Shown here piece after piece: positions 4,701 to 52,616 of a DNA stretch of 64,000 nucleotides. The notes under the pieces were generated by a model, which was not told where the DNA came from, did no database searches, and saw only the letters and a list, made by a program, of their open reading frames with translations. A program made the translations under genes and the position numbers. The number at the start of each line of letters is the position of its first letter. Position 1 is the first letter of the stretch. The stretch comes from Octopus sinensis (lineage: Eukaryota): NCBI RefSeq assembly GCF_006345805.1, contig NC_042999.1, positions 129,952,001 through 130,016,000 of the forward strand, given 5' to 3'.

Positions 4701-7700
4701 AAATAAAAACCTAATATCAGTGCTTCAACATGGCCTTAGCTGTAATAGTTAAAATGAATGCTAAAGAATTTTGAAAACACATACACACTTTTGAAATGAA
4801 AAAGTAAATACCTCTAGTAGCAGAGTAGCTAAAGGAATATTTGCCTTATGACAACTGTGATGTAAAGGACTATTCCCACAATGGTCAGCTAAGTTCACTT
4901 TGGCTCCATATGATAACAGTAACTCAACCATCTGCAAAGAAAAAAAAATACAAGCTGATATACCGCAAGTGTGTGTATGTGTGTATGATATGATATATGA
5001 AGATTGCCTCATCTTATTGGATGAAAGCTTGCTCACATTCAGCTTCATTGTTCCAATCTACCTTCATCCTTACAAGTGTGCAGATATGACTTTTACTATG
5101 TATCCATTACCATAGGACTTTATAAAATACGAAGCAGACCAGGATATGAAGCCTGGTGCAGGCTACTGGTATGCCAGTCCACAATCAAACTGTCCAACCT
5201 ATGCTAACATGGAAAATGGACATAAGGTTTCTTTTAATAAACTTATTCCTTTTCAAAGGCAAGAAAATACTAAAAAAGTGATGCAGATGATGGTGATTAT
5301 GATAATGGACAGATTTTCAGTTTGAAATTCTAATATTACAATTTGGATATTTTCTAATAAAATACAGATATTTTGAAATAATTATGAGACTATATCTTTA
5401 TATTTATTATATACTAATCTGAATAAGAACAGCAGTAGCCTGGGTAGTGCCAGGTCATTCAGCTAATATATAACATTCTGAGGTTGAAGAATTCTTGTCT
5501 TTTAATAAAGAAACTTATTCTTTATCAAAAGCAATAAAATACTAAAAAGGTGATGCAGATGATGGTGATTATGATAATGGTAATATAGTAAATTCTTTAC
5601 CTCTACATCATCATTCATGCAAGCCAAATGAAGTGGAGTAAAACCATCCTCTGACAAACAGTTAATGTGTGCCCCTGCTTCTAGCATAGTTTTTGCTAAT
5701 TCTAAGCTGTTCGCTTGGACTGTTAAATGAAGAGCTGTGAGTCCTTGACAATTGCGCTTGTTAATATCGATGTCATTCTGTTTCTTTGCTAACTTCTAAA
5801 ATAAAGAAAATACGAAAGATTTCAGAAAGAAAATACAATACGCCTTTTCAGGCCAGTAATTTTATGCAAATAAGGATAGCTTGATGGACAATAATAATAA
5901 TAATAATAATAAAAAGTAATACTTTTTATTTATTTAATATACAGGATGTCCCAGAGTTAACTATCTTTTTCAAGGAAATCAGGCAAATAAAAAAAAAAAA
6001 CTGACAGAATTTTATGTTTATTACTTAATTACAATAGCAAAACAAATAGATTTATAAATCTTATGTTAAAGCTTTATTGAAAATTTTCAACATGTTTTCC
6101 ATCTGTAAATCTATCCTTAGCTTTGCAAAACACAATTTGAAGCATTTCAGGATTTATCTCCTGCACTGCTAACTAAATTCATTCTTTAAGTTCAGCTAAA
6201 CTATTGCTCCATCCTAGGGATAGAGGTTGAGAAAATGATTGCAGCCAAAGTGAAAAAACGCTGTCACGGACAGATAAGCGGGATCCAACACAAGTGAAAA
6301 TAAAATTATAAAACAACAAGAGCACTCAGAGAGCGCAAACCTCTGCCAAGGCAGCACCAACATCATCTCAACGATTAGCCAGAGATGATTTTTAAAAGGA
6401 GACTATCTGAAATAAACTCGACTGCTCTCACAAATGAGAATACTAAAAATGAACCTGACCGTTCTCAAAAATTAAGTAAAAAAAAAAACGGAAAAATAAT
6501 TCAAAATCCTAGTCTGGTACCAGATCGATCCCAAAATCTAATCAGTTTGTGCCAGTCATGAGGCCAAACATCCTTGAAAGTTTCATATGAATCCATCCAG
6601 TGGTTCTTGAAATATCTTGTCCACACACAAACAAACACAACTGAAAACAATACCTCTGCCTTCCCTAAGGCAGAGGTGATTATAAACAAAATTTTAAATT
6701 TATACACTTTTAACACATGTTAAACACCTAAACATAAATAAAAGTGAATTTTTAAAAAATTGTTCGATTTCAATGAAAGAGAGAGTTAATTCTAGGACAG
6801 CCCGTATTTAATTATTTAATTTATGTGAGATTTTCCTAATTGAATTCCATGTAATTGACATGATTGCACATCTATGCATTCTCTCACCCAAGTTACGAGA
6901 GTTAAATTGATTTGATCAAAAGATGACATGTAACATCTGGCCTTTGTGCCAAAAACCTGATGCTGGCTATTATAACTACAAAACTAACTTTCTCTTAGAC
7001 ATGCTACACTTCATTAAAACATAAAAACAATAATGAATAAATGTTTGAATATCAAGATACATTAATTTATCCTTTTTACATCAATGCAATAAATAGTAAA
7101 ATGCTAAAACTTTAAAAACTATCCATCAACTAGTGATCAGTTGTACTGACTTCATGGAAGAGAACTGTTATGCTCTTTCTAAAAGCATTAACAGAGTAAA
7201 TGAAATAGCGAAAACTGTATGCAGAATTATCTATAATTATTACCATTTTGGATACAAAATCCATCTTGCAATGGAAGAAGTACTGATGATAAAATTGGCT
7301 GCAGTACCTTACTTCAGATACTAGAAATTCCATTGAATCTAGTTAGATTTAAATTGAACTTAGCCCTGGTGATACATAGAAACTAGACAAAGAAAAGATT
7401 AACCATAGCTCTCTACTGTGCTAGCTATCTCCGTTGCCCTGAATTATTAATTAATAAAATTTTCACTTGGAAAACACTAACATTCTGTATAGAGAAGTTG
7501 AATGGTTCTGAAAATTCACAAATTTGCATGAACTGCTAAAGTGATTACTACCAATGTAAATGAGTATTATTTACTCAACAGTAAAATATGAGCACAACCA
7601 ATTTATAGCTAGAAAGTAAAATGTAAAATAGAATGCCAAGAAGTATATTCCAACAGATAGTTATTAGGTTACTAGTAGAGTACCTTGCTATTCAGCCATT

Positions 7701-10700
7701 AAACCTCTTATACAAGTTAGCTTCTCAAAAGTTGATCTGTACATATTTCAATCAACTGCCCACTTCATTACTGAGTAGTTACAAGTACAAACCCGATATA
7801 CATTTTATCTCATTTTCTTTTAATCTTTTTGGCTTATTTGAGAGCACTTCTAGCCATCTCTTTGAGTTCAATAAGGATTTTGGAACACAGGTAGTTGTCT
7901 GTCCTCGATGTCACTTTGGAGGATGCAGAGGGGCTAGCATGGGACTGCCAGAAATAGAGAGCACTGGTGGATCTGGTCAGCTCTATGCATGATAACGTCT
8001 CTGGAACCACTAACCTGGGATGACCCAGCCCCATCAAATAACAGCATGAAGTTAGTAGTAGTCCATCAGGTCTCAGCCATCTCCTGTATATTATAGTTCT
8101 CTAGAATGTAATGAAGAAGTTCAAGACAAGGTGTCTGTGAGCACTGTTGTATACCAAAGTCCTAATTTTCATCATCAAATTAATCAAAGACTAAGAAGAA
8201 AAATTCCTACATTGGATGTAGAACATTAAATCAAGGCAACCTAGCAAAGACAATAGTCTTAGCAAGAAAAATACCATTTGAGAAGTGGCCATGTTTGATA
8301 TGCACTAAAAGGTGTAGATCAGGTATAGGCAACTATTTTTGAGAAGCAGGTTGCATGAGATATGGCTCGTTATGAGGTGAGTCACACTACTAAATAAATG
8401 CAAGATAATTTTTGCACTGGTTTGCCATTCAGAAAGTCCCGCAGGTTGCAGTTTGCCCATGACTGATGTAGATAGAAAGTCTATATCATGTAAACTATGG
8501 GTGCACAAGAGATGCAGTGGGATTACTTATAGACTGACAGAAAACAACAGTATATAGATGATATGCAGTAGTTTGCACTCATAGCATCCATATGTAGCCT
8601 AGACTGCTACCTTGAGAGTTCAAATTCCGCTGAGGTCGACTTTGCCTTTCATCCTTTTGGGGTAGATAAATTAAGTACCAGTTATGCACCAGGGTCAATG
8701 TAATCAACTTAATCCCTTTGTCTGTCCTTGTTTATCCCCTCTATGTTTAGCCCCTTGTGGGCAATAAAGAAATTAGAATGCTACCTTGAAGTAGTTAACA
8801 ACTTCTGTTACCTAGATAACCAATTTGGCAGCAAAAGTGAGGTACAGAAGTTACGGAAGCCAGAGTAAGAATAAAGTGAATAAGTTCAAGCTGTAACGTC
8901 TACTGGGAACAAATAAATTCTCTCAAGTGAAGGACAGTTTGTATGATGTTTGTATATGAAGTGTGATATTGTATGGTACATAGACACTGAATGCAGAGGA
9001 GATATGAAGGCTGAAAAGAAATAAGATGAGCATATTCTGTAGGATGTACATATGAAGGGTAGAGCACAAATGAGCTGAGATAAAAACTAGGTAGAAGAAT
9101 CAACAACAGTGTGCTAATACTGACATAAGACGTATATGAAGGATGACGCTTGGGCAAAGAAGTGCCAAGCAATCCAAGTGGAAGGAGCTTATAAAAGATG
9201 ACGATACCAAAAGAAAAGATGAAATCTGATCTCACAATATTGAATCCACATGAGGGAGATGACAAGAGAGTGCAACAAATGGTAAGATGTCTGGAGAAAA
9301 CCCATCCAACCCAAGCAAATAGGAAAAAATAAAGATAAAATGATGACATAACATTTCATAATTAAAATAGTTCAAAACAAATTTATTCAATTTACTGTTT
9401 GCAAATATTTTCCCAAGTTCTTATTACGAATCTTTTAAAATGCTTTTGATAAATCAAGTGTTTTCTTTTTTTAAAAAAAAAAAAACACCAATTAACTAAG
9501 AACATTTATGCTCCTGGCAGGAAAAAAAACCCCAATTAACTAAGAACATTTATGTTCCATGGCAGGAACATAAATGTGTCATGAACAGGGGCACAATACA
9601 ATGCAACAATATTACACATGAAAATTAATTTGAAAAGTTCTTTCATAAATTAAAAAAAGAGCTAGGAGCCTAAATTAACAAAAACATTTTATATAACATT
9701 CTAAAATTTCATAGAAAATTTGATATTTTCAGCATATATAATTGATATCATCATCACTAGTTTCCTATTAGATGTATATATACCTGTTTTCAAAAATATA
9801 AGTGGCAAGTTATAGTTTGAAATGATCAATATTTCTTATAATGTACTCAAAGGATTTAAGCAAAATTACAAACCTAATACCTGAATTTCTTCTGAATATT
9901 TTACATTAAGTTGACATGGCAGTTTGAAATGAGTGTACAGTGTGGATAGTTAGACAAGTATAAATTTACAGAGAACAGAACAATTATGGTTTATATAAAG
10001 TATAGTTTACATCAATGAACAGAACATATTACACTAGCTCACAGCAGTACACAATACATTATTTGTAAGATAAACAAGATCAATAAACAATGTATTAAAC
10101 TGACATCTGTATACAATGATTCAATGAACAAGATAAATGAACATGTGTTCAACTAACAACAATGAACAAGATCAATAGACAAAAGGTTTTAAGCTAACAG
10201 CAGTACACAGTAGCATCATAGATAAGAATGGTGAACCCTATGAATAGAACTAAAGTTTGTCTATTCAATCTTAATCTGAAGTAATATGAAATGTAGTGCT
10301 TGTTGATTGAAATAGAATATAGATAAAAACATGAGAAATTAAGTTGATAATCTGCTCAACTTTCAATCCTCAGTTCGGTTAGCTGAGATATATCAGGCAC
10401 TGACAAGTATTATCTTTGGTATGAAGATAAAACAAATGACTGTAATAGGTAGCATAGGTAAACTACTGTCAACATGATGTTGAGAATAAGTACAGAATAG
10501 ATGAGTTTTGGGACTTTTTCTTGAACATAAAGTTCATTCTAAGTATAGAATCTAGAGAGATTAATTTGTTGAAAGACAAACTGTTCTTCAAATCCCAACA
10601 CATAATCTTTCAAGGTGAAGAACTATATTTTGTCTAAAAGTTTCTTCTTAGAAGTATGTAAACATTGAGGGAAAACATATGCAACAGAACATGGTGAGAA

Positions 10701-12865
10701 ATACAAGTGCAACATATAAGAAAGTGTAGTCACTCATGCTGGCAGTTCTATAGAGTTTTAGAGAAATGAGATATAGGATAATCATTTCCATCAATGTCGG
10801 TTTGAAGGTAAATGTTAGTATTGAAAGCAATAAGAGAAGCACTTTTACTGGAGAGCAGTAACAAAGTGCCTTGACCAAAGACCACGCTATTTCAAAGATG
10901 GACAAAGTACTGTACAAAAATAATTAAGAAAAAAATTACTTTGGGATGGTGACATACACTATGAATAAAATATATTAGTACAGACTTGTAAGATAGATAT
11001 ATTAATTATAAAACAAACTGAATATGACAATGGAACTTAACTATCTGATTAAACAGAAGTTTTTCTAACTTAAATTCTACTTCACAATGTGGATCAGCTT
11101 AAAGTGATAATCTCCTGCTACAATGGAAAATAGTTTATCATTTGCAATTTATTTTCAAGGTAAATAATAAAAATAAATTGTACGTTTATTATTTCTGCTG
11201 TAAAAACTAGAATATTTGGTCAAGTACTTTAACTACTAAATGAGAGGAGTATGGGTGAATGATGTTTACAACAAAAGACAAATTATATGAAAAGGGAGAG
11301 GCAATGGAAGTGTCATGCAGTTGCCTAGTAATGAAAACACATTGAACCACAGTTGCACAATGTTACTTACATATCCTTGAGATAGCAGCTCTTTTAAAGA
11401 CTGAAGGAAAAATGCAATTTGGTTAGTGCTGCAATATATCTACTTTAAATGCATGCTTGCATTCGCAAATAACATTGAAATAAATAAAAAAAAGTACATA
11501 AAAGAGAAAAAGCAAACAAGCCTTCTTAAAATATCTACAACTGGCACAACCAATGTCTATAAGTTGCAAATAAAAACAAGAAATTCTAAACTAATTTTAA
11601 AACACAATAATATATATAAAAAAAAGAAATCCACTAGAAATATTTTAATGAAGATGGTTTATATAATTCTATGGCAGATATGGTACTGAATAATGATATT
11701 AATTATTGTCAATCTTGCAATGATGAAGATGTATTTAGTGCCTATAACAGAACTTTCTTTTAAGTACAAGGACGAAATAATTATGATGAAACATTTCAAA
11801 GAAAACTGGTTTGGTAAAATAGATTTTGTCTCATTTCTAGCCGTAATGCAGACCAAACCTTAGGTTTGATAAGAAATACTTCAGTTTCTAACATACATTA
11901 TAAAATTCATTACATATGAGAGAGAGAGAATAGAGATTGAGAATAAGAGAGAAAAAAATGTTTTTCCATTCTACTTTGAACTGAATTTCATAAATAAACA
12001 ACAGGTTGTGATACGCTACTCAAAAAAATATTTTCTCCTACTTATGTTTGTTATTCTTTTTCCTTAGTATTTACAAAAATATTAATACATCGATTTCTAA
12101 CATTAGCATGAAGTAAATTTTCATGGTTGGAGGGAGGTGGGGTATAATTGATAAAAATCTCAGTACCCGACAGACACTTTAGGTGAGGTTGACAGCGGTA
12201 GTGTTTAAGCCTTTAGCATTCAAACCAGTCATATTCAACTCAAATATATTTATCTGTTTTACGTTCAAACTAGCCAGACCTGATCTCTCACACCTACTCT
12301 ACAATGTCATTCTAAAAATGCAACAGTCACATTATTAAATTTTCAAAGGTATGAGATAATGCATAATTAATTCAAAGCAATGTGAATAAATAAACTTTAC
12401 ATTGGACAGAAAATTCTGAATAATAAAGGATTAAATGAGAGAGAGAGATAATTATGTTATGACCACAAAACTATATTTCAAGTAAAATTGTATTAGGAAT
12501 GATCTGCTGTGAGAAGGATCTAGTCCAACATATCAAGTCTTGCTTAGGATATGGAAAAAAAAATATTATCACTTAGGCTGGAGACAGACTAATAAATGCT
12601 TAACACTTTCCATGGCAAAGGAACTTTACCATCATTGACTTTTACCGATGCAGACATCATTATTTTCCTTGGATGTTGAATTTTAATATAAAACTAGGTC
12701 ATTACTCGTCACTATGCTGCTGGTAAAAATATTTGTTAATCATTCACGTACCTTCATAAATTGTTCAAAGTGAAATCTTTTTTTAAAGTCCATGTGGCAT
12801 TGTCTGCGTTGAAAGACATACAGAAACACACCCACACCCACAAAAATAACTATTATGTGTGTATG

Positions 12866-12928
<63 letters not shown>

Positions 12929-15900
12929 ATATTGTCTTTTTTTGAAGCCTGTGTTGCATTGTGTTGACAGACTTGCACTTAAAATTCTTGCATTTTTAAT
13001 CAAAACTTGTTAGTTACTATGGTGACAACACTACCTATTTATCTATCTTTTACACTCTCTTTCACTGTATTTCTTTCTCAAAAACAACTTGTTCTCTCTG
13101 ACTTCCCTCTCTCTACACAGATATTGTTACAGACAGATAGATGGAGATCAGATTCTCTTTTATAATATAAAATTGTAGTGTGTTTATCAGTGCAAAAACA
13201 ACATTGGATTCCCATTTTATCAAACATTACTAAATAGAGAGGAAAAGAATGAGGCAATAAAGCTGTATATTTGTTCAGTGGTTATGCCAACATCAATGGA
13301 ATTACTGCCTTTCTCCAACATCATTGACTCAAGTCAGTTTTTCCAAGCAAGCACCAGCTTGGTGAATCTTAAAATTCTTCTCAATCCTCAGTCAGCACTC
13401 AAACAGCACACTTGCAGGTTTTCTCAACCTTCAACTTTGTCCTCTATAATTCAGTCACTTTACATTTTTTTCATCCAATATGTATTTTTCATTCACAAAA
13501 TATGTCTATACCACTTTGGTTTAGTAGTTGATGCTTTAGACATTCAAATATTTATCTGTTCTGTAAAGCCAAAATTTTCTCTCTCATCAGACCATATTCA
13601 ACACATTCCTTTCCCAATCACTGCACAGTAGAATTTTAATAATTGAGTATGCTTATAAGATCTGAATAGAAATATTCTGCAGGTTTCTCGTGGCCTGTAG
13701 TTAAAATCTGGCCTTTTTAAGTTCCTTGCAGCTTTCCAACATTACTATAAGTCTTGTATATCATATAAGTCTGTCATTCACATTTCACTGCTGTGCAATA
13801 TCACACTTAATAAATGCATTACATAGTCTGCATTTATAAAGAAATCTTTGTTGCTAAGAGTCAAAAGTAGTTCCTTTAAACTTCTGGCTGCCTCAAACCC
13901 TGCCACTATGCTACATCTAACATCAATCACTCAGGAAATTAAATTTACTGACTGCTTGTAGTGAGTCTATAGCAAAAAAAATCTTAAAGGAAGGGAACAA
14001 ACATATAATAATAGTATGAAGCTAGTCAAACTAACTACCATGAACTAATAACTATAACTCCGGGCTCAATTAGTGCAAGAATATCCTATTAACCCTTTAG
14101 TGTTCAGATTACTCTGTTAAATGTAATATTTTTTTACTCAGATCGTTTTGAATTAATCATGCATTATCTTATAGCTTTGAGGTTTCAATGATGTGATTGT
14201 TTATATTTATGTCAATGTAGGTTAGGTGTGAGAGGCTAGATATCGCCAGTTTGAATATAAAACATATAGAATATTTGGGCCGGATATGGCTGGTTTAAAC
14301 ACTAAAGTGTTAAAGACAATCTGTTCTATTTCAGCCAAGGGGTATTAATAGGTCATTGAATATTTTGAATGAGTAGTAACTATTATGATTTCTCAAGAAA
14401 AATCTATGACAAATAGTTGCTAATTAAAAGAACTTCTTTTAAGACAAATTTTCATTCACATACCATTCTGAAAGTTAGTCTCAATCATTTCAAAATACAG
14501 TGCAGTTTAAAATGAAATTTATATTGCATGCAAGCTACTCAATACATATGCATACGTCAGGTACACACATGTATAACTTTGTTTTAAGTTTATTCAACTA
14601 CAAACAGAAGAGAATTTTAAGTTACTGAATAAAGAGAACAGAAATATCACTCTACCTTTTGTAAGACAGCACATTTTTCACACTGACAAAGTGGATGGCA
14701 GAGATTTTCAATACCCATTGCAGAATCCAAACTCTGCTGTGTCTTTAGTTTATTTTCAGAATCACTTGACAACCCGAGGTAGAAACGAACCTGAAGAGAA
14801 AGGTAATTCTTAGTAATTATATAAAACAAACAAAACTAAGAAATTTTGTAGATCATTAATAAAATCTCTAATACAAATATTGATTTCTTTCTTTATATAA
14901 AATCAATTTTTGCAGAGGAGCAGTACAATCAACTGAAACCATATAAGAAAAAAAAGAGATGACAAAGGAATAATTCTTTATCTCTTTTTTCTTACCACTC
15001 TGTACTCAACTAATGTCATTCAGAAGCATGCATCTATTGAGTTCTACATCAGGTTATTAATATCACAATGCCTAAGCGAAATATTAAAATGCGAAAATGA
15101 AAATCAAATCCAGCAAGAGTCTTACCAACTGCACATCATGGTTTTTAATAGCCTTGAATAATTTTTCCTGTTGTCTATATTTAGAATTGACAGTAGTCTG
15201 AGACTGTTCAACGTACAAATTTGAACTGGAAACAGAGGATGTAGCTATAGAAGATGAATATAATGGCACAGTCTTACGTTCTGGAGAATACTGCAAAGGA
15301 AACAAAAATAAAAGTATATAATGATTTGAAACAAGAGAAAACTTTGTGACAAACTAATACAGGATATTTATCATATCAAAACACAGAATCACTGTTTGAA
15401 TATACAAAAATGTGTAACTAGCTTTTTGTTAAAAGAAAGTTTCGATTCTATAGACAGAAATACAAACACACACACACGCATATATAATGAGTTTCTTCCT
15501 TGTTAGTTGAACACTTTTTTTTCTTCATGGAATATGTTTATTTCAGCAAAGTTTTAAATAATATAACAATGTAAACTTATTGAACTTGAGAGGCACTATC
15601 ATCATGTGAACAGTCAGTAATTTTGAGCATTTGGACTTTATAAAAATTAAACATATATTTTGTTTAATTTTATTTTTGTCTTTACATCTGTTTTTACTAT
15701 GTCAGCATGGGTTAGATAAGATTCCTTGGAGCAGTATTCTGTGGCAAGATGCTGTTCATGATGCCAACTCTTCATTGTTTCCATCTTAGATACTGTTGAA
15801 AAGTTGAAGTACATATTGTGTATGAGAGACATGATAAATGTCCTTGCAGCACAACTGTTGTCATTGTAAAAGCATAGGAAGCGGACACACACACATATGC

Positions 15901-27400: not shown

Positions 27401-30400
27401 GTCCTTATGTTCTAAGTTCAAATTCTGCTGAGGTCAACTTTGCCTTTCATCCTTTTGGGGTCGATGAAATAAGTACCAGTTATGCACTGGGATTGATGTA
27501 ATCAACAAGCCCCCTCTGCCAAAATTTCAAGCCTTGTGCTTGTAACAGAAAGATTATTGTTATTATTAAGATAAAATAAGACAGCAAGCTGGAAGAATCG
27601 TTAGCATGCTGGACAAAATGCTATATGTTCTCTTCTTAAATTCTGCTTTATCTTTCATCCTTTTGGGGTCAATAAGTACCAGTCAAGTACTGAAGTCAGT
27701 GTAATTGACTTCCCCCTTCCCTCAAAAACTGCTGGCCCTGTGCCAAAATTTGAAACCATTATTAATATAAAATACAGAGTTAAGTTCTCTTGATTAACTT
27801 CTGCTTTATACTTACTTGGAAAAAGATATCTGTAGGACTGAGTTCTGGGGTTTTGTTACTTTCAAATATCGGAGAGGGTACAGTATCTGTAGTGTCACCA
27901 ATCACAACATCCACAGAAGAATCAAACCACTAAAAAGAAAGATGGTTATCTTGCAGGTTTACTCAAACATTAATCTTACCAAACATAATTACATCACAAA
28001 GCAAGACAGAACAATTTTTACTGCAATGTTGTAAATAGTGAAGAAAAACATACCTGAATATTGGATGAAGTAGAAGGTATAATCTTCACTTTACCACTTC
28101 GTATCTGTTCTAATGCAGCTTCAATTGTAGCCAGATAATAACTAAAAAAGACAGAATAGAAATGAAACTGGATAATATAGATAATATTTTCTTAATTTTT
28201 CTTTTATTGTTTCCTATCTCTTTTTCTATGGTTGCATAGGTCAAATGTCTTTGTTACAGTAATTGCTTGTACAGTTAATTTCTTTCTTACTAGTCAATTG
28301 TAAAGTAGCTATGATGCTTGTTTTTAGTTCAGCCAGTCAAACTCGAACGACTGAGGTTAAGTGGTTTGTTCACAATGGTAGTAATCAGATTGCATATGAT
28401 CAATAATTCAGAGGTACTGAACATAGTATATGTGAGAAAACAAAATACATAAGTCTCCTAAGTTAAGAAGACTTTGAAAGGTCAATATTATCTACTTAAT
28501 ACCATAAAATCTGAACTGAGATAAAACTAAGTTCACAGTTACTTGTGCAAAACTGGAATCCAGATAGGATACCAGTTTAGGACAAATAGCTGTGAGGATG
28601 AAAGACTTGAGGTATTTCGTGTTGCAAGACAGTGTGTGAGAGAGAATCGTGATGTGGTAGGAGAGAAGTGTGTTCGCATGGATGATGGTTCACTTGCGCT
28701 AAATGAGGATGCAAAGAGAGAGGTTTGGAGATGCCACTATGAAAGGTTGCTGAATAAAGAAAATGAATGGGATAAAGAGAGTCTGCCGAATGTCAACCCA
28801 ACAGAGGGACCAGCCATCAGAGTTGAAAATTCTTTGGTAGTTAAAGCAATTAGAAGCATGAACACAGGGAAAGCCCCAGGCCCATCAGGAATTACTGCAG
28901 AGATGCTCAAAATATCTGGCAGTGTCGGCTATAACCTAGTCACCCGTATAGTCAACCAGGTGATACACGAAGGAGTCATACCCAATGACTGGTGTAGCAG
29001 CATACTAGTCAACTGCTACAAAGGTAAAGGTGATGCCCTAGATACAAATAATTACAGAGGTATCAAGCTGTTGGATCAGGTAATGAAGGTTATAGAGAGG
29101 GTCATAGCCCAACTAATTAGAGAGAGAGTTAGTTTAGATGAGATGCAGTTTGGGTTCGTGCCAGGGAAAAGTACCACTGATGCTATATTCCTGGTAAGGC
29201 AGCTGCAGGAGAAATACCTAGCCAAAGATAAGCCTCTGTACCTGGCTTTCATTGACATGGAGAAAGCCTTTGATAGGGTCCCCCGATCCCTTATCTGGTG
29301 GTCAATGAGGAAACTAGGGATAGATGAATGGCTGGTGAGGGCTGTGCAATCCATTCACAATACGTCAGTCAGTCCAAGGCTATAGAAGACACTTGCCCAA
29401 GGTGCTACGCAGTGGGACTGAATCCAAAATCTTGTAGTTGAGAAGCAAGCTTCTTACCACGCAGCTACACTGATGGACTTTGGTCAGCCTCGAGCTATAG
29501 TAGAAGATACTTGCCCAAGGTGCCATGCAGTGGAACTGAACTCAGAAGCAAGTTTCTTAACCAAAGAGCCATGCCGGTGCCTATTATTAAAATGATAAAA
29601 TAAACTTGTAAAAATTTAAAAGTATGTCAGAAATTGTATGACTAGTTTTTAACTAACCTGTATTCATCTTTGTTTGACGCACGGGAAAAATTGAAATGCT
29701 GGACATAAGCTAAGTTGGAGCACCTAAAATATATTTAGATGAAAATATTAAGACACAATGATAAGGAGATAAAGTAGAAGGGAAGGATTTAAAGTTAAAC
29801 AAAGAAAAATATTTCTTTATTAAAATCAATACATACCAATTAGGAATTTCAGATTTAACAATTATAAAAATGAGCAATGGTAAAAGGTCATCGGAAGTCA
29901 TCACATCTGAAAGAGCTTCACTATCACCTAGATAAAGAGAAGGAAAATAAAGTTAAAAAGACACTTCAATGAGAAGCCAAATGTCAGAACGAAAAGATTC
30001 CAATGTCATAGAAAAGTAAGGATTTTAGAGATTGGTGTTTAACCCCAGGTCAGTCCTGATTTATGAGCAAAGACATTCAAGCCATGATCACCTCATCTTT
30101 GCAGAAGATATAATGTATCCAGGGCTACATTATCCTGGATGCATGTTCCCACATTTTAAGATAGTAGAGTGCGATTTGATGGAATTTAGCTGCTATTTCT
30201 AGCTGATCAAGGGATCACACAGTCTTTCCCTTCCAGCTTGTATATTTCTTTGGTGTTGTAAATATAGATAAATAGAATATAAAATTACACTTATGTATTT
30301 GTTTTGCAAGATTGCTGATGTGAAATTGTGTGTTGAAGCAGATATTGTTATATTTGGAGATGGTCATATTTTTGCCAATTATCCACATGCACTATACACT

Positions 30401-48482: not shown

Positions 48483-50702
48483 TATTCCAGAAACAGCTAT
48501 AAGACTTCAAATTTACCCTAATTAAATTATTCTATATGTCTTGAGATACCTGTCCTGCCTTGGTTTTTGTTGTTCGTTTTTCCCCTCATATAATATATAA
48601 ATTCTACTATTCATCTCATTTATTAAAATTTATTTCCTGATTTATAATTTAAAAAAAATAAAGTGTTGGTTTCCAACACAGGCATAAGGTATCAAATTTG
48701 GAGAATGGGTTTTTGTCAACATCAGTACTTGAATAATACACCCTCCACCATAAACCGTCTTTGGCGAGATTCAGATTCTGAAGACAAAATACATGATATT
48801 TTATTAACTTTCTACTAATTCTATCAATATTAGTTTCAAATTTTGACACTTTTGAGGGCGGGTGTAACTCTATTACATCAAGCCCAGTGTTCAACTAGTA
48901 CTCATTTTATCATCTCCTAAAGGATGAAAGGCAAAGTTAACCTCAGTGGAACTTGAACTCAGAACATAATGACTGACAAAGTGCTGGTAAGCATTTTGCC
49001 TGGCATGGTAACAAATCTGCCAGCTTGCTGCCTTCCAATCTACCAATATTGACATGAAAAATGGTTTGTGGCAGAATAGGTAGAACAAAAGAACATTATG
49101 GCATTTAGTTGCATCGTTTTGAAATTTTAGTCCAATTCTTGTACAGGAATGATTCAATTTATTATATCTCTTCTCTACAAATTTGTGATGTTCTGCTAAA
49201 GTTAGAGATCCATATTATGTATGTGTATATGTGTGCTTACATACGAACATATGCTAATGTATATTCATAAGCTATCACAATATTTTCTCTAAATAAAATG
49301 TTTAAATTATTTCTGTTTTATTTATTTATTTATTAGTTATCAATGAATTACAAATCTATAATTGGTAGTTTATACTCAGAAACATAACTTTTTGTTGTGT
49401 GTGCATGTATTTTATAGTTATGAACAACAATTAAAATTGCTAAGCTTGTCACAAATATCAGGCTTCACAATTTCTAATACTCTCTCAAGGCAATCTCATT
49501 TGTATAACATTACCAAAACTGTATCACAAAACTAGGATTCCTCTAGAATAAGACAATAATTTTGCCTTGATCAGTTGCTGACCTGCTACAAAGTTCAAGT
49601 GATATCCATTTTGAAACACTACTCACATCTGTGGAATGGAATGATATTGTTGCTCTCCATACAGACATTCTGAGCCAAATCCAAAAGAAGGTCTTTTTAC
49701 TGACCAACAATGATAAACTCACTAATATTCTACAATACCTAACATACAACTACATGATTTCTTCTCTCTCACTCATTACTACAACAGCCTGCTCTTATGA
49801 ATTAGTAAATCACATACTCTTCACTCAATCCTATCCAACCCACCTATCTCTCTTCTTCCTTGTATTTCACTTTCTCCTCACATGATTCACTTTCCAGATT
49901 CTACACTAAATACATCACCCATTTCTTCCTTCCCTGAGTTGTAACCCTCTGAAAATTCATTTATGCCAACACTTTTCTGGACAATTTTAACCAAAGCTGA
50001 GCATCATCAGTTACTTCAACCACATTGCCCCTCCTCCCTGATTGATATAAAAACAATTATTGTATCTATGAGTGTGTATAACTTTGTGTTTACTTCTATT
50101 TCTATATTTTGTATTTATTTTCATCTAAAATATTGTTTTAGTTATGTATTGTTGATACCACAATTTTTTTTTAATTCATCCATCTCCATCCTCTATTCTA
50201 GAGAGGGTCATGGAGGGCAAAGTTATTGGGCACCTCCTCCATAATGTCCTAACAGGAGTAACCATCATTACACTTTCCAGCAAGATTCCTAAGTGTGATG
50301 AACTGAGACTATGGCTATTATCTAACTTTCTCCTTCTTGGTCTACTGCCAAGAATCTGTTTTGAGTACTAAGTGGTGATCTCCAGATAAAATATTTGCAT
50401 TAACCACTGAGATACCAACTTGCTTAAGACTGTCTTTAGTTCTAAATCATTCATCATAAGTTAATGTAAGAACATTTGTTAAATAATATTGCAAAGACTG
50501 GATAAATAATGAAAATGTGAGTTGTTTTACTAACTCCTTTCAAATTCTTAATTATTTTCTTAATCAATTTATTTACATGGACTGTATTTCACAAATGGGT
50601 TAATTGGAAAGAAAATCAAAAGGTTCACAGAAACATTACACACCTGGAATAAATGTCATACCATGTGTGGTCAGTCATCTAAATTCAAAGCTCAAATCTT
50701 GT

Positions 50703-52616
50703 TTTGCAAAGAAATACTCGAACACCAAGTCAACAATAGGACCTCTCCAGAGACAAAATGGGGATGTAGTGAATAACCCTATTGAAATGGCAGAAATGTT
50801 GGGTCAACAGTATGAAAGTGTCTTCAGTGAGCCATCTAAAACCATGAAGATCCATGACCCAGGAAAATTCTTCAAGGATATCGACCATTCTAAACCTACC
50901 CTATCCGACATTGATTTCAACCCAGAAGACATAGCAAGAGCCATAGACAAGCTCCCCATGCACTCGGCTGCGGGGCCTGATGGTTTCAATGCCATGATAC
51001 TTAAAAACTGCAAGGTACAATTGTCGAAACCCCTTTACATGATATGGAGGGAATCTATGGAGAATGGCAAAATACCAAATACATATAAAGAAGCACACAT
51101 AACTCCAATACATAAAGGGGACAGCAAATCAAAACCAAAGAACTACTGACCAATCTCACTGACATCACACATTATCAAGGTCTTCGAAAGAATAGTTCGT
51201 GGAAAACTGGTTGAGTTCCTGGAATCCAACAATCTGATGAATTGCAACCAGCATGGATTCAGGTTAGGTAGATCATGCCTTTCCCAACTACTGGCACACC
51301 ATGACCAAATCCTAGAAAATCTAGAGAATGGATACAACACAGATGTTATCTACCTCGACTTTGCCAAGGCATTTGACAAGGTAGATCATGGCATCCTGGG
51401 TCACAAACTTCGAAAGCTAGGAGTAGGAGGAAAAGTTGGTACATGGATACATGAGTTCCTTACAAATAGAACTCAAACAGTCACTGTGAATGGAACCCAT
51501 TCAACACCATCACCTGTGACCAGCAGTGTTCCTCAGGGTACAGTACTCGGCCCAATCCTGTTTCTCATCCTCATCTCTGACATAGATGAAGATACAACCA
51601 GCAACGTCTCATCCTTTGCTGATGACACCAGTGTCATGAGACAAATCAAAGACGAGGTGGATACAGAGGCCTTACAAAAGGACCTGACCACCATATATAA
51701 ATGGCAGGAAACAAACAACATGTTGTTCAATGATAAGAAGTTTGAATTAATTCGCTACGGAACAGATCAAGATCTGAAAAATACAACAAACTACAGAAAC
51801 CCATCAGGACAACAAATAATGGAAAAACAGTATGTGAAAGATTTAGGCATCCACATGGGAACCAACCTAAAATTCAGAGAACACCTTGACTCAGTCTGTC
51901 TTACTGCAAGAAAGTACAGCGGGTGGATCTTGCGCACCTTCAAATCAAGAGATACCTCAACAATGAAAACCCTCTGGAACAGTATGATACTTCCGAGGAT
52001 TGACTACTGTTCTCAGTTGTGGTCACCAACAACAAAGGGCCAACTATCTAAGATAGAATCGCTCCAAAGAAATTTTACCTCATACTTCTCAGAAACGAGG
52101 GACCTGGACTATTGGCAAAGACTCAAAACCTTGAGGATGTACTCAATAGAAAGAAGATTTGAGCGATACCGAATTATATACATTTGGAAAATGATAGAGC
52201 AGAAGGTGCCAAACTTTGGTATCAAAACCTACCACTCACTGCGCCACGGAAGACGCTGCCAGCTGCCACCAATCAACAAAAAGGCTGGCCAGGCAGCAAA
52301 AACCCTGCGAGAATCAAGTCTGTTGGTTCGAGGAGCACAACTGTTCAACTCCATTCCGGTACATGTCAGAAATCTATCAGGATGCAGTGTGGAATCATTC
52401 AAATTGCAACTGGATAGATACTTAAGCACCATTAGAGATGAACCCCATCTCCCAGGATATACACAACGAGCGCAAACTGACTCAAACTCGCTCCTACACA
52501 TGTCAAAATTAAGCAGAGAATACAACCTGGCAACCACACCAGACTCTGAGGGTGGAGTCTTCGACTTGGCCTGAGCATGGACTCAAACCCAAATGAAATG
52601 AAAATGAAAATGAAAT
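50703..52616 (+). mobile_element. 5'-truncated CR1/L2-group non-LTR retrotransposon (RT region of ORF2) with (GAAAT/GAAAAT)n tail
   Basis: Motifs AAGPDG, NY*PISLTS, QHGFR, YLDFAKAFDKV, VPQGTVLGP, FADDT; ORFs 50604-51149 and 51237-52574 share a frame, split by TGA 51147-51149. Confidence 0.93.

Follow-up and report, generated by a model that had tools for sequence, protein, structure and literature searches.

The 30-nt exon at 11371-11400 on the - strand of the window (the complete stretch of 64,000 nt of the Octopus sinensis genome analyzed here) is almost certainly a real alternative exon of the gene ANKRD27/VARP. It encodes the peptide SLKELLSQGY and is located between the constitutive exons 20 and 21, with phase 0 on either side as resulting from the spliced match of isoform P0010. 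The exon is regarded as established because of annotated isoform pairs and not because of its motifs. In the RefSeq annotations of O. sinensis (XP_029633527.1/XP_036357217.1 with 962 aa and XP_029633528.1 with 952 aa) and O. bimaculoides (XP_014780065.1 with 962 aa and XP_014780066.1 with 952 aa), the ANKRD27 isoforms X1 and X2, which are automatic gene models, have SLKELLSQGY as their sole difference. The exon is thus already in public annotation and hence not undiscovered, although isoform X1 is known there by automatic annotation alone. The reading to which we incline, with modest confidence, is that of a frame-preserving, mostly skipped cassette, for which a preferential inclusion in neural tissue is likely and which would retune the linker from the second VPS29-binding zinc finger to the following ankyrin repeats rather than the contact to VPS29.

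The host gene on the - strand was assigned to ANKRD27/VARP by tblastn, in which the RefSeq proteins of O. sinensis match the exons of the window nearly letter for letter. The 962-aa isoform P0010 could be spliced exactly onto the window, with 25 coding exons that extend between 42049 and 1694, and VPS9 and ankyrin matches of Pfam were found in the coding region. The gene and the surroundings of the exon contain the following features:

1694-42049, - strand: ANKRD27/VARP coding region, 24 constitutive coding exons and the microexon (tblastn, spliced match of P0010, Pfam)
14656-14790, - strand: upstream coding exon 20, 135 nt, donor GTAGAG (spliced match; join of exons 20 and 21 in contig 9 of run X12)
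14671-14700, - strand: codons of the second CHPLCxCxxC zinc fingernail, the VPS29-binding motif (match to 6TL0_B and 4B93_B; PMC7539009)
5796-14655, - strand: host intron, phase 0, 8,860 nt (spliced match)
11422-11428, - strand: CACTAAC, branch-point-like and putatively used as branch point (sequence)
11414-11416, - strand: TGC (UGC) from -16 to -14, behind the branch point and ahead of the pyrimidine tract, candidate eMIC site (sequence)
11401-11412, - strand: pyrimidine tract and AG acceptor (serves isoforms P0010, P0005 and P0011)
11371-11400, - strand: cassette microexon, 30 nt, SLKELLSQGY (RefSeq isoform X1 versus X2 in two Octopus species)
11365-11370, - strand: GTAAGT donor (P0010 and P0005 are spliced here, P0011 continues past it)
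11314-11319, - strand: TGCATG at +52, Rbfox-type candidate (sequence)
5601-5795, - strand: downstream coding exon 21, 195 nt, running into the ankyrin repeats that follow (spliced match, run contigs)

All elements named in the first-pass annotation (CACTAAC, TGC, the acceptor, the 30 nt, GTAAGT and TGCATG) were recovered at their positions on the - strand, and the in-frame VARP microexon claimed there is a real cassette, as shown by the annotated isoform pairs. That reading overlooked the RefSeq listing of the exon as well as an annotated, truncated read-through form (P0011, see below). With a length below the limit of 51 nt, AG and GT sites and a retained frame (30 nt, phase 0/0), the exon qualifies as a microexon, and its acceptor sequence on the - strand is TTTTTCCTTCAG. 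The CACTAAC at 11428 is the sole - strand copy in the whole window and the GTAAGT at 11370 the only one in the host intron. A branch-point word, a UGC within 25 nt, GTAAGT and a TGCATG within 150 nt occur together at the microexon alone (1 of 25 exons). The flank had also been described as poor in repeats, which could be verified: 11050-11700 has one genome match in a search that ignores simple repeats and very common words, and the repeat pile-ups of the run contigs are missing from about 8810-12119 and present elsewhere in the host intron. Highly transcribed or high-copy interspersed repeats of this intron are located at 8616-8773, 12224-12346, 14127-14314 and 6108-6683; for the element at 8616-8773 the summed contig depth amounts to 44,000-214,000 in all four runs.

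Compared with chance, the motifs are only modestly unusual in the window. For the patterns, which were defined post hoc, chance predicts 0.25 and 0.08 occurrences per window, and 23 and 8 of 100 shuffles contained them. In the 2.7-Gb genome, the order of branch point, tract, AG, short gap and GTAAGT resulted in 19 matches versus 41 for the control read backward, the version with TGC in 29 versus 38 and a GTC control pattern in 45 versus 74. Frame-preserving lengths were obtained for 11 of the 29 TGC matches versus 14 of the 45 GTC controls. No genome-wide enrichment of the octopus UGC pattern was detected, which is a weak test of the code since the position of the UGC was fixed. The motif set alone does not prove an exon and the pattern is not diagnostic. 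Two 18-nt look-alike candidates on C5 and C8 were rejected, as both are located at the end of a shared 1.25-kb repeat with 72% identity. The copies of this repeat (L021:3740-4993 on C8 and L022:3743-4972 on C5) terminate in a mimic of a microexon that consists of UGC, tract, AG, 18 nt and GTAAGT.

The VARP protein cluster of the octopuses comprises 8 members, and SLKELLSQGY is identical in the entries of O. sinensis, O. bimaculoides and O. vulgaris. A pseudo-exon or an annotation artefact would be in line with the chance occurrence of the motif pattern at genome scale and with inclusion junctions that are not among the contig pieces listed. This explanation is extremely improbable in view of the same peptide annotated in two species and an acceptor that is also used in the annotation of a third species, O. 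vulgaris. Neither the single Argonauta model nor any of the 5 cuttlefish-cluster proteins contains the insert; the weight of this is low, since minor isoforms may go unlisted. At the nucleotide level, the surroundings of the exon were compared with organism C, represented by run X14:

11114-11403, - strand: unusually conserved segment, 3 differences in 290 nt in organism C (X14 contig 20)

In seven other intronic pieces of run X14, which are the longest listed and not all, 127 of 2,701 nt differ (Fisher p = 0.0013 against 3/290). Exon 21 shows 6 nucleotide differences between the window and organism C.

For the detection of the isoforms, 4 of the 24 listed runs (X1, X12, X14 and X21) were examined as contigs, which drop rare forms; the runs carry no tissue labels and their status as RNA is a guess. 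Of about 13,960 contig pieces, 32 were shown. In contig 9 of run X12, exon 20 is joined straight to exon 21 with zero letters in between (record letters 689 to 690), and thereby the skip junction 14656>5795, which had been proposed for checking, was seen directly. In run X14, a piece with exon 21 and a depth of about 25 reaches 2 letters into the acceptor, which probably reflects the skip junction as well; the exon-21 substitutions of organism C agree with protein P0005. Run X1 contains one contig with exon 21 and, judged by depth, exons 19 and 20, with no added depth at the microexon, and a separate unspliced contig spanning 11184-11424. Run X21 was uninformative on the microexon. The junction 11371>5795 from the microexon to exon 21 was not found among the 32 pieces listed of about 13,960 in the 4 runs, and none of the three splice junctions is among the 15 joints listed of 92, a list crowded with repeat artefacts. 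The skipped form predominates in the informative runs, and the exon is therefore alternative and not constitutive. Both forms exist, inclusion being known from the annotation and skipping from the junction in X12.

In runs X1 and X14, low-depth contigs were furthermore observed over much of the intron 5796-14655, at about 1/5 to 1/2 of the exon depth. Such a coverage fits slow splicing or retention of this intron, or the presence of DNA in the run. With a share of intron words of up to 0.36, a long alternative 3′UTR was considered and rejected due to the scattered, low-depth coverage of the whole intron.

A neural-microexon-like splicing code had been proposed for the exon. This applies insofar as a UGC, with the TGC at -16, is located between branch point and AG, but the UGC lies in front of a tract that extends right up to the AG, and the AG-exclusion zone measures 26 nt. 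Of the 24 internal or terminal acceptors, one more (exon 5) has a TGC at -20 to -10. In two human classes of SRRM3/4 microexons, 79% and 74% have a UGC between branch point and AG, which is typical of the targets and not obligatory (10.1101/2024.09.17.613571). The eMIC exons of the fly are characterized by long AG-exclusion zones, weak 3′ sites and UCUC tracts (10.1101/2021.02.24.432780). The octopus acceptor is not weak in this sense, having a 26-nt zone (shorter than in 20 of the 23 other internal acceptors), a tract directly at the AG and no UCUC. A long zone, a distal tract and branch point and UCUC are enriched in the class rather than a strict rule. SRRM4 microexons with the upstream intron removed first are longer and have stronger 3′ sites (PMC10250204). 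Due to its UGC before an AG-abutting tract and its 26-nt zone, the octopus exon therefore fits at best this longer, upstream-first minority with stronger acceptors (PMC10250204).

The exon resembles the neural microexons that depend on SRRM3/4 or the eMIC domain of Srrm234 in its short, frame-preserving length (below 51 nt by the definition in PMC10250204), the strong GTAAGT donor, the CUAAC branch point, the UGC before the AG, the host gene with a function in vesicle traffic and the presence of an eMIC domain in the genome. It differs from them, as far as sequence can be compared, by a UGC in front of the tract instead of the canonical position between tract and AG, by the short AG-exclusion zone and by the missing UCUC. 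With 30 nt it also exceeds the strict microexon class of 3-27 nt. The eMIC domain (SRRM_C, PF15230) was detected in the O. sinensis genome above the Pfam cut-off with 32.6 and 30.5 bits in two scans. It is located in an RS-rich exon on a small contig (L001:1486-1947, - strand; G000:C11337), where it follows an RS-rich stretch, and is likely part of the octopus Srrm234.

Downstream UGCAUG elements promote exon inclusion via Rbfox. A TGCATG within 100 nt has a chance of about 4%, three other VARP exons have one within 150 nt, and a GCATG is also located upstream of the microexon at 11456. Inclusion of the cassette would need an activator, most likely an eMIC isoform of Srrm234 acting at the UGC, and Rbfox at +52 would perhaps help. 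The upstream intron is probably removed first, and RNA reading through the donor would then be an intermediate or a side product. Alternative splicing in octopus is highest in neural tissue (PMC9699675). Enrichment of the microexon in neural tissue appears somewhat probable from these comparisons, and a dependence of its inclusion on eMIC appears possible, with the balance slightly against it.

The skipped form had been described as colinear with human VARP, and this agrees with the alignment up to CAPAQK. The octopus zinc motif and its flanks align with the human VARP Zn-fingernail 2 (6TL0) and the VARP-VAMP7 fragment (4B93). The insert follows five residues after the second CHPLCxCxxC, behind the equivalent of human K725. 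Its placement directly after the VPS29-binding motif is thus accurate to five residues, but these lie outside the ordered zinc core: the human CHPLCQCPKC (residues 711-720) is the only stretch ordered on VPS29, and the flanks of the zinc motif are predicted to be unstructured (PMC7539009). A measurable effect of the insert on the affinity for VPS29 is improbable. The VAMP7-binding mutant of VARP carries M684D/Y687S (PMC4059916), and M684 and Y687 align with L725 and F728 of the octopus protein, which precede the insert by 45 and 42 residues. The supposed position within the VAMP7-binding region consequently holds for the crystallized fragment but not for the mapped contacts M684/Y687, which are 42-45 residues away.

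The length of the linker at the zinc motif is 25 residues in 36 of 106 distinct VARP linkers. This is the mode and corresponds to the skipped form; the octopus linker with the insert amounts to 35 residues. With the insert, the helical hydrophobic moment increases from 0.07 to 0.45 over the 18 residues that follow the zinc motif. The insert is predicted to turn the stretch behind the zinc finger into an amphipathic helix, one face of which is LxxLL-like, and to alter the span from the retromer anchor to the VAMP7-binding ankyrin region. Both roles, as spacer or as helix, are predictions.

The same junction was searched for optional inserts in other animals using 29 aligned isoform pairs from 24 clusters, each with at most 15 of the members listed (15 of 287 for the oyster cluster). 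At exactly this junction, optional inserts of 10 aa in Ruditapes, 10 aa in Watersipora and 4 aa in Argopecten were found, so that, Octopus included, 4 of the 13 spiralian genera with at least two listed isoforms have one. All four keep the frame and three of the four are 10 aa long. In the listed isoform sets of amphioxus, ray, Xenopus and sea cucumber, of which ray and Xenopus represent the vertebrates, no insert at this junction was detected. Outside Octopus, 3 of the 12 small isoform indels are located at this junction (about p = 0.01 if introns are equally likely), a value that overstates the case, as linkers tolerate inserts better than domains do. Moreover, the Owenia isoform P0195 stops 3 residues past the same junction. 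Judging from the isoform alignments, this junction repeatedly serves as the site of short optional inserts and is not specific to octopus. The insert had been called lineage-specific, which is correct for the peptide but not for the junction with its other optional inserts in three further spiralian genera.

The inserts of clam, scallop and bryozoan probably represent separate exons, judging from their terminal residues: no insert has Val in first place or Gln, Lys or Glu in last place, and the use of alternative 5′ or 3′ splice sites is thus unlikely, assuming a conserved phase-0 intron. The four peptides have no recognizable sequence in common, which speaks against a single conserved binding motif. 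The hydrophobic moment is raised less by the inserts of clam (0.13 to 0.28), bryozoan (0.05 to 0.13) and scallop (0.31 to 0.37) than by that of Octopus. The recurrence may be due to convergence or to an old exon whose sequence was turned over. Recurrent gain of exons at one position was reported to be prominent only for neural and partly for muscle exons (10.64898/2026.09.05.749416). The Type I convergent neural exons of that study are likewise different short alternative exons at the same protein position in orthologues of distant lineages; for the four VARP inserts, neural specificity is putative.

An exon that is included at a low level, in a non-neural or not tissue-specific manner, and tolerated in a flexible linker would give a similar picture, with the recurrence explained by a permissive intron. 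The dominance of skipping in the informative runs, the predicted unstructured flanks of the zinc motif (PMC7539009), the unrelated inserts of the four genera, the varying linker lengths of arthropod VARP and the absence of the insert from the single Argonauta model and the 5 cuttlefish-cluster proteins are in accordance with it. We regard this explanation as rather unlikely, considering that the peptide is identical in two Octopus species although exon 21 differs at 6 nucleotides between window and organism C, that the flank is conserved above the intron background, and that the inserts at this junction are all in frame, with 10 aa in three of four.

During the survey, a 10-aa isoform difference of Lingula was rejected as a case of the same junction, since it lies elsewhere, at residue 125, and a profile search with 50% clusters was swamped by unrelated ankyrin proteins, with no isoform pair gained. 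VARP inserts at other positions were observed in amphioxus (4-5 aa near residue 643; P0162/P0158, P0132/P0165 and P0156/P0160), Babylonia (8 and 7 aa; P0150/P0148), Lingula (10 aa; P0216/P0193) and Pomacea (6 aa; P0188/P0210).

The O. vulgaris annotation includes a second product of the microexon acceptor: in CAI9720011.1 (P0011, 792 aa), this acceptor is followed by read-through of the donor, and the protein terminates in CLLL after a further 34 residues. The isoforms of this annotation were drawn from PASA updates on Iso-Seq and RNA-seq data (PMC10700109). The corresponding features of the window are:

11266-11370, - strand: read-through frame, 34 aa, CLLL followed by a stop codon; alternative terminal exon or retained intron (identical tail in P0011)
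11190-11185 and 11153-11148, - strand: two AATAAA hexamers after the stop codon, candidate polyadenylation signals (sequence)

Contig 20 of run X14 (317 letters, depth 5) maps to 11114-11403 with 27 letters left over upstream and continues unbroken through the donor and 257 nt beyond. The length of this leftover suggests exon 20 spliced to the microexon, with an expected overlap of 27+3 = 30 letters. The tail ends in Cys, two aliphatic residues and Leu. Of the 1,899 sense-strand frame ends in the gene, 4 have a strict CaaL (0.2%; 1% for a loose pattern), and so does 1 of 24 donor read-throughs, which is that of the microexon donor. A C-terminal CaaX with a final Leu directs geranylgeranylation.

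The selected product may be a composite terminal exon formed by read-through, which yields a truncated VARP with CLLL that would be geranylgeranylated and membrane-anchored, the cassette being a second output of the same switch. The truncated VARP would keep both zinc fingers, VPS9 and the first ankyrin stack and lose most of the second. This is suggested by the tail of P0011, which is exactly the predicted one, by contig 20 of X14 crossing the donor with leftover letters that seem to fit spliced exon 20, by the conservation of the segment (3/290 vs 127/2701), by the two AATAAA behind the stop codon, by the scarcity of strict CaaL ends and by the stop of Owenia P0195 three residues past the same junction. 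We consider it unlikely all the same. Splicing of the upstream intron first would also explain X14 contig 20, as its intermediate would look alike, and the low-depth intron coverage in X1 and X14 can be pre-mRNA or DNA; a poly(A) end near the AATAAA was not seen in the contigs of the four runs. Conservation of the flank is also expected of splicing elements, and the positions of the 3 differences of organism C are not listed, so that the tail is unread there. The CaaX motif was noticed post hoc, T-rich introns yield tails rich in C and L, and the tail of Owenia is without CaaX. A function of the read-through VARP as a prenylated form, as suggested by its C-terminus, is accordingly quite improbable.

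Alternative last exons of Cdc42 with CaaX or CCaX are a known case in which 3′ processing sets the C-terminal lipidation motif (10.1101/366369), as the read-through would do. Unlike in Cdc42, the CaaX form of VARP, which is a prediction, would truncate a scaffold that is normally not lipidated. Distinctly improbable is a combination in which VARP is switched between three forms (skipping, a 10-aa helix and a CLLL-prenylated truncation) and the junction is a regulated slot of Spiralia with turned-over sequence. In this case, the truncated form would keep both retromer anchors and the Rab-GEF and lose most of the ankyrin stack on the VAMP7 side, and the slot would span octopus, clam, scallop, bryozoan and annelid.

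As matters stand, the exon, which is already annotated, looks like an ordinary member of a thoroughly studied class. In literature searches, which largely left out subscription papers, no paper on ANKRD27 with a microexon was found, and neither the spiralian recurrence nor the read-through form was found in print. A regulated VARP/ANKRD27 isoform at this joint was not found among the titles and abstract openings of the papers listed. The main text of 10.64898/2026.09.05.749416 does not mention ANKRD27/VARP, while its supplements may list the exon for O. bimaculoides. VARP connects retromer, Rab21/Rab32 and the SNARE VAMP7. If the exon is neural, it is a concrete cephalopod target of the bilaterian microexon program, in papers on which octopus seldom appears. 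The inserts of 4-10 aa at one junction in four spiralian genera are a clean case for the question whether selection keeps the position and not the sequence, and if the read-through results in a real prenylated protein, splicing would change the membrane attachment of VARP.

Two further observations were made in the window. The 66-nt exon at 29658-29723 (- strand) in the VPS9 domain corresponds to 22 residues that are missing in the O. vulgaris models P0007, P0009 and P0011 and kept in other octopod proteins; the loss in O. vulgaris is due to exon skipping or an annotation gap. At 50604-52574 (+ strand), two adjacent long frames of 181 and 474 aa with one stop codon in between resemble a LINE reverse transcriptase by eye.
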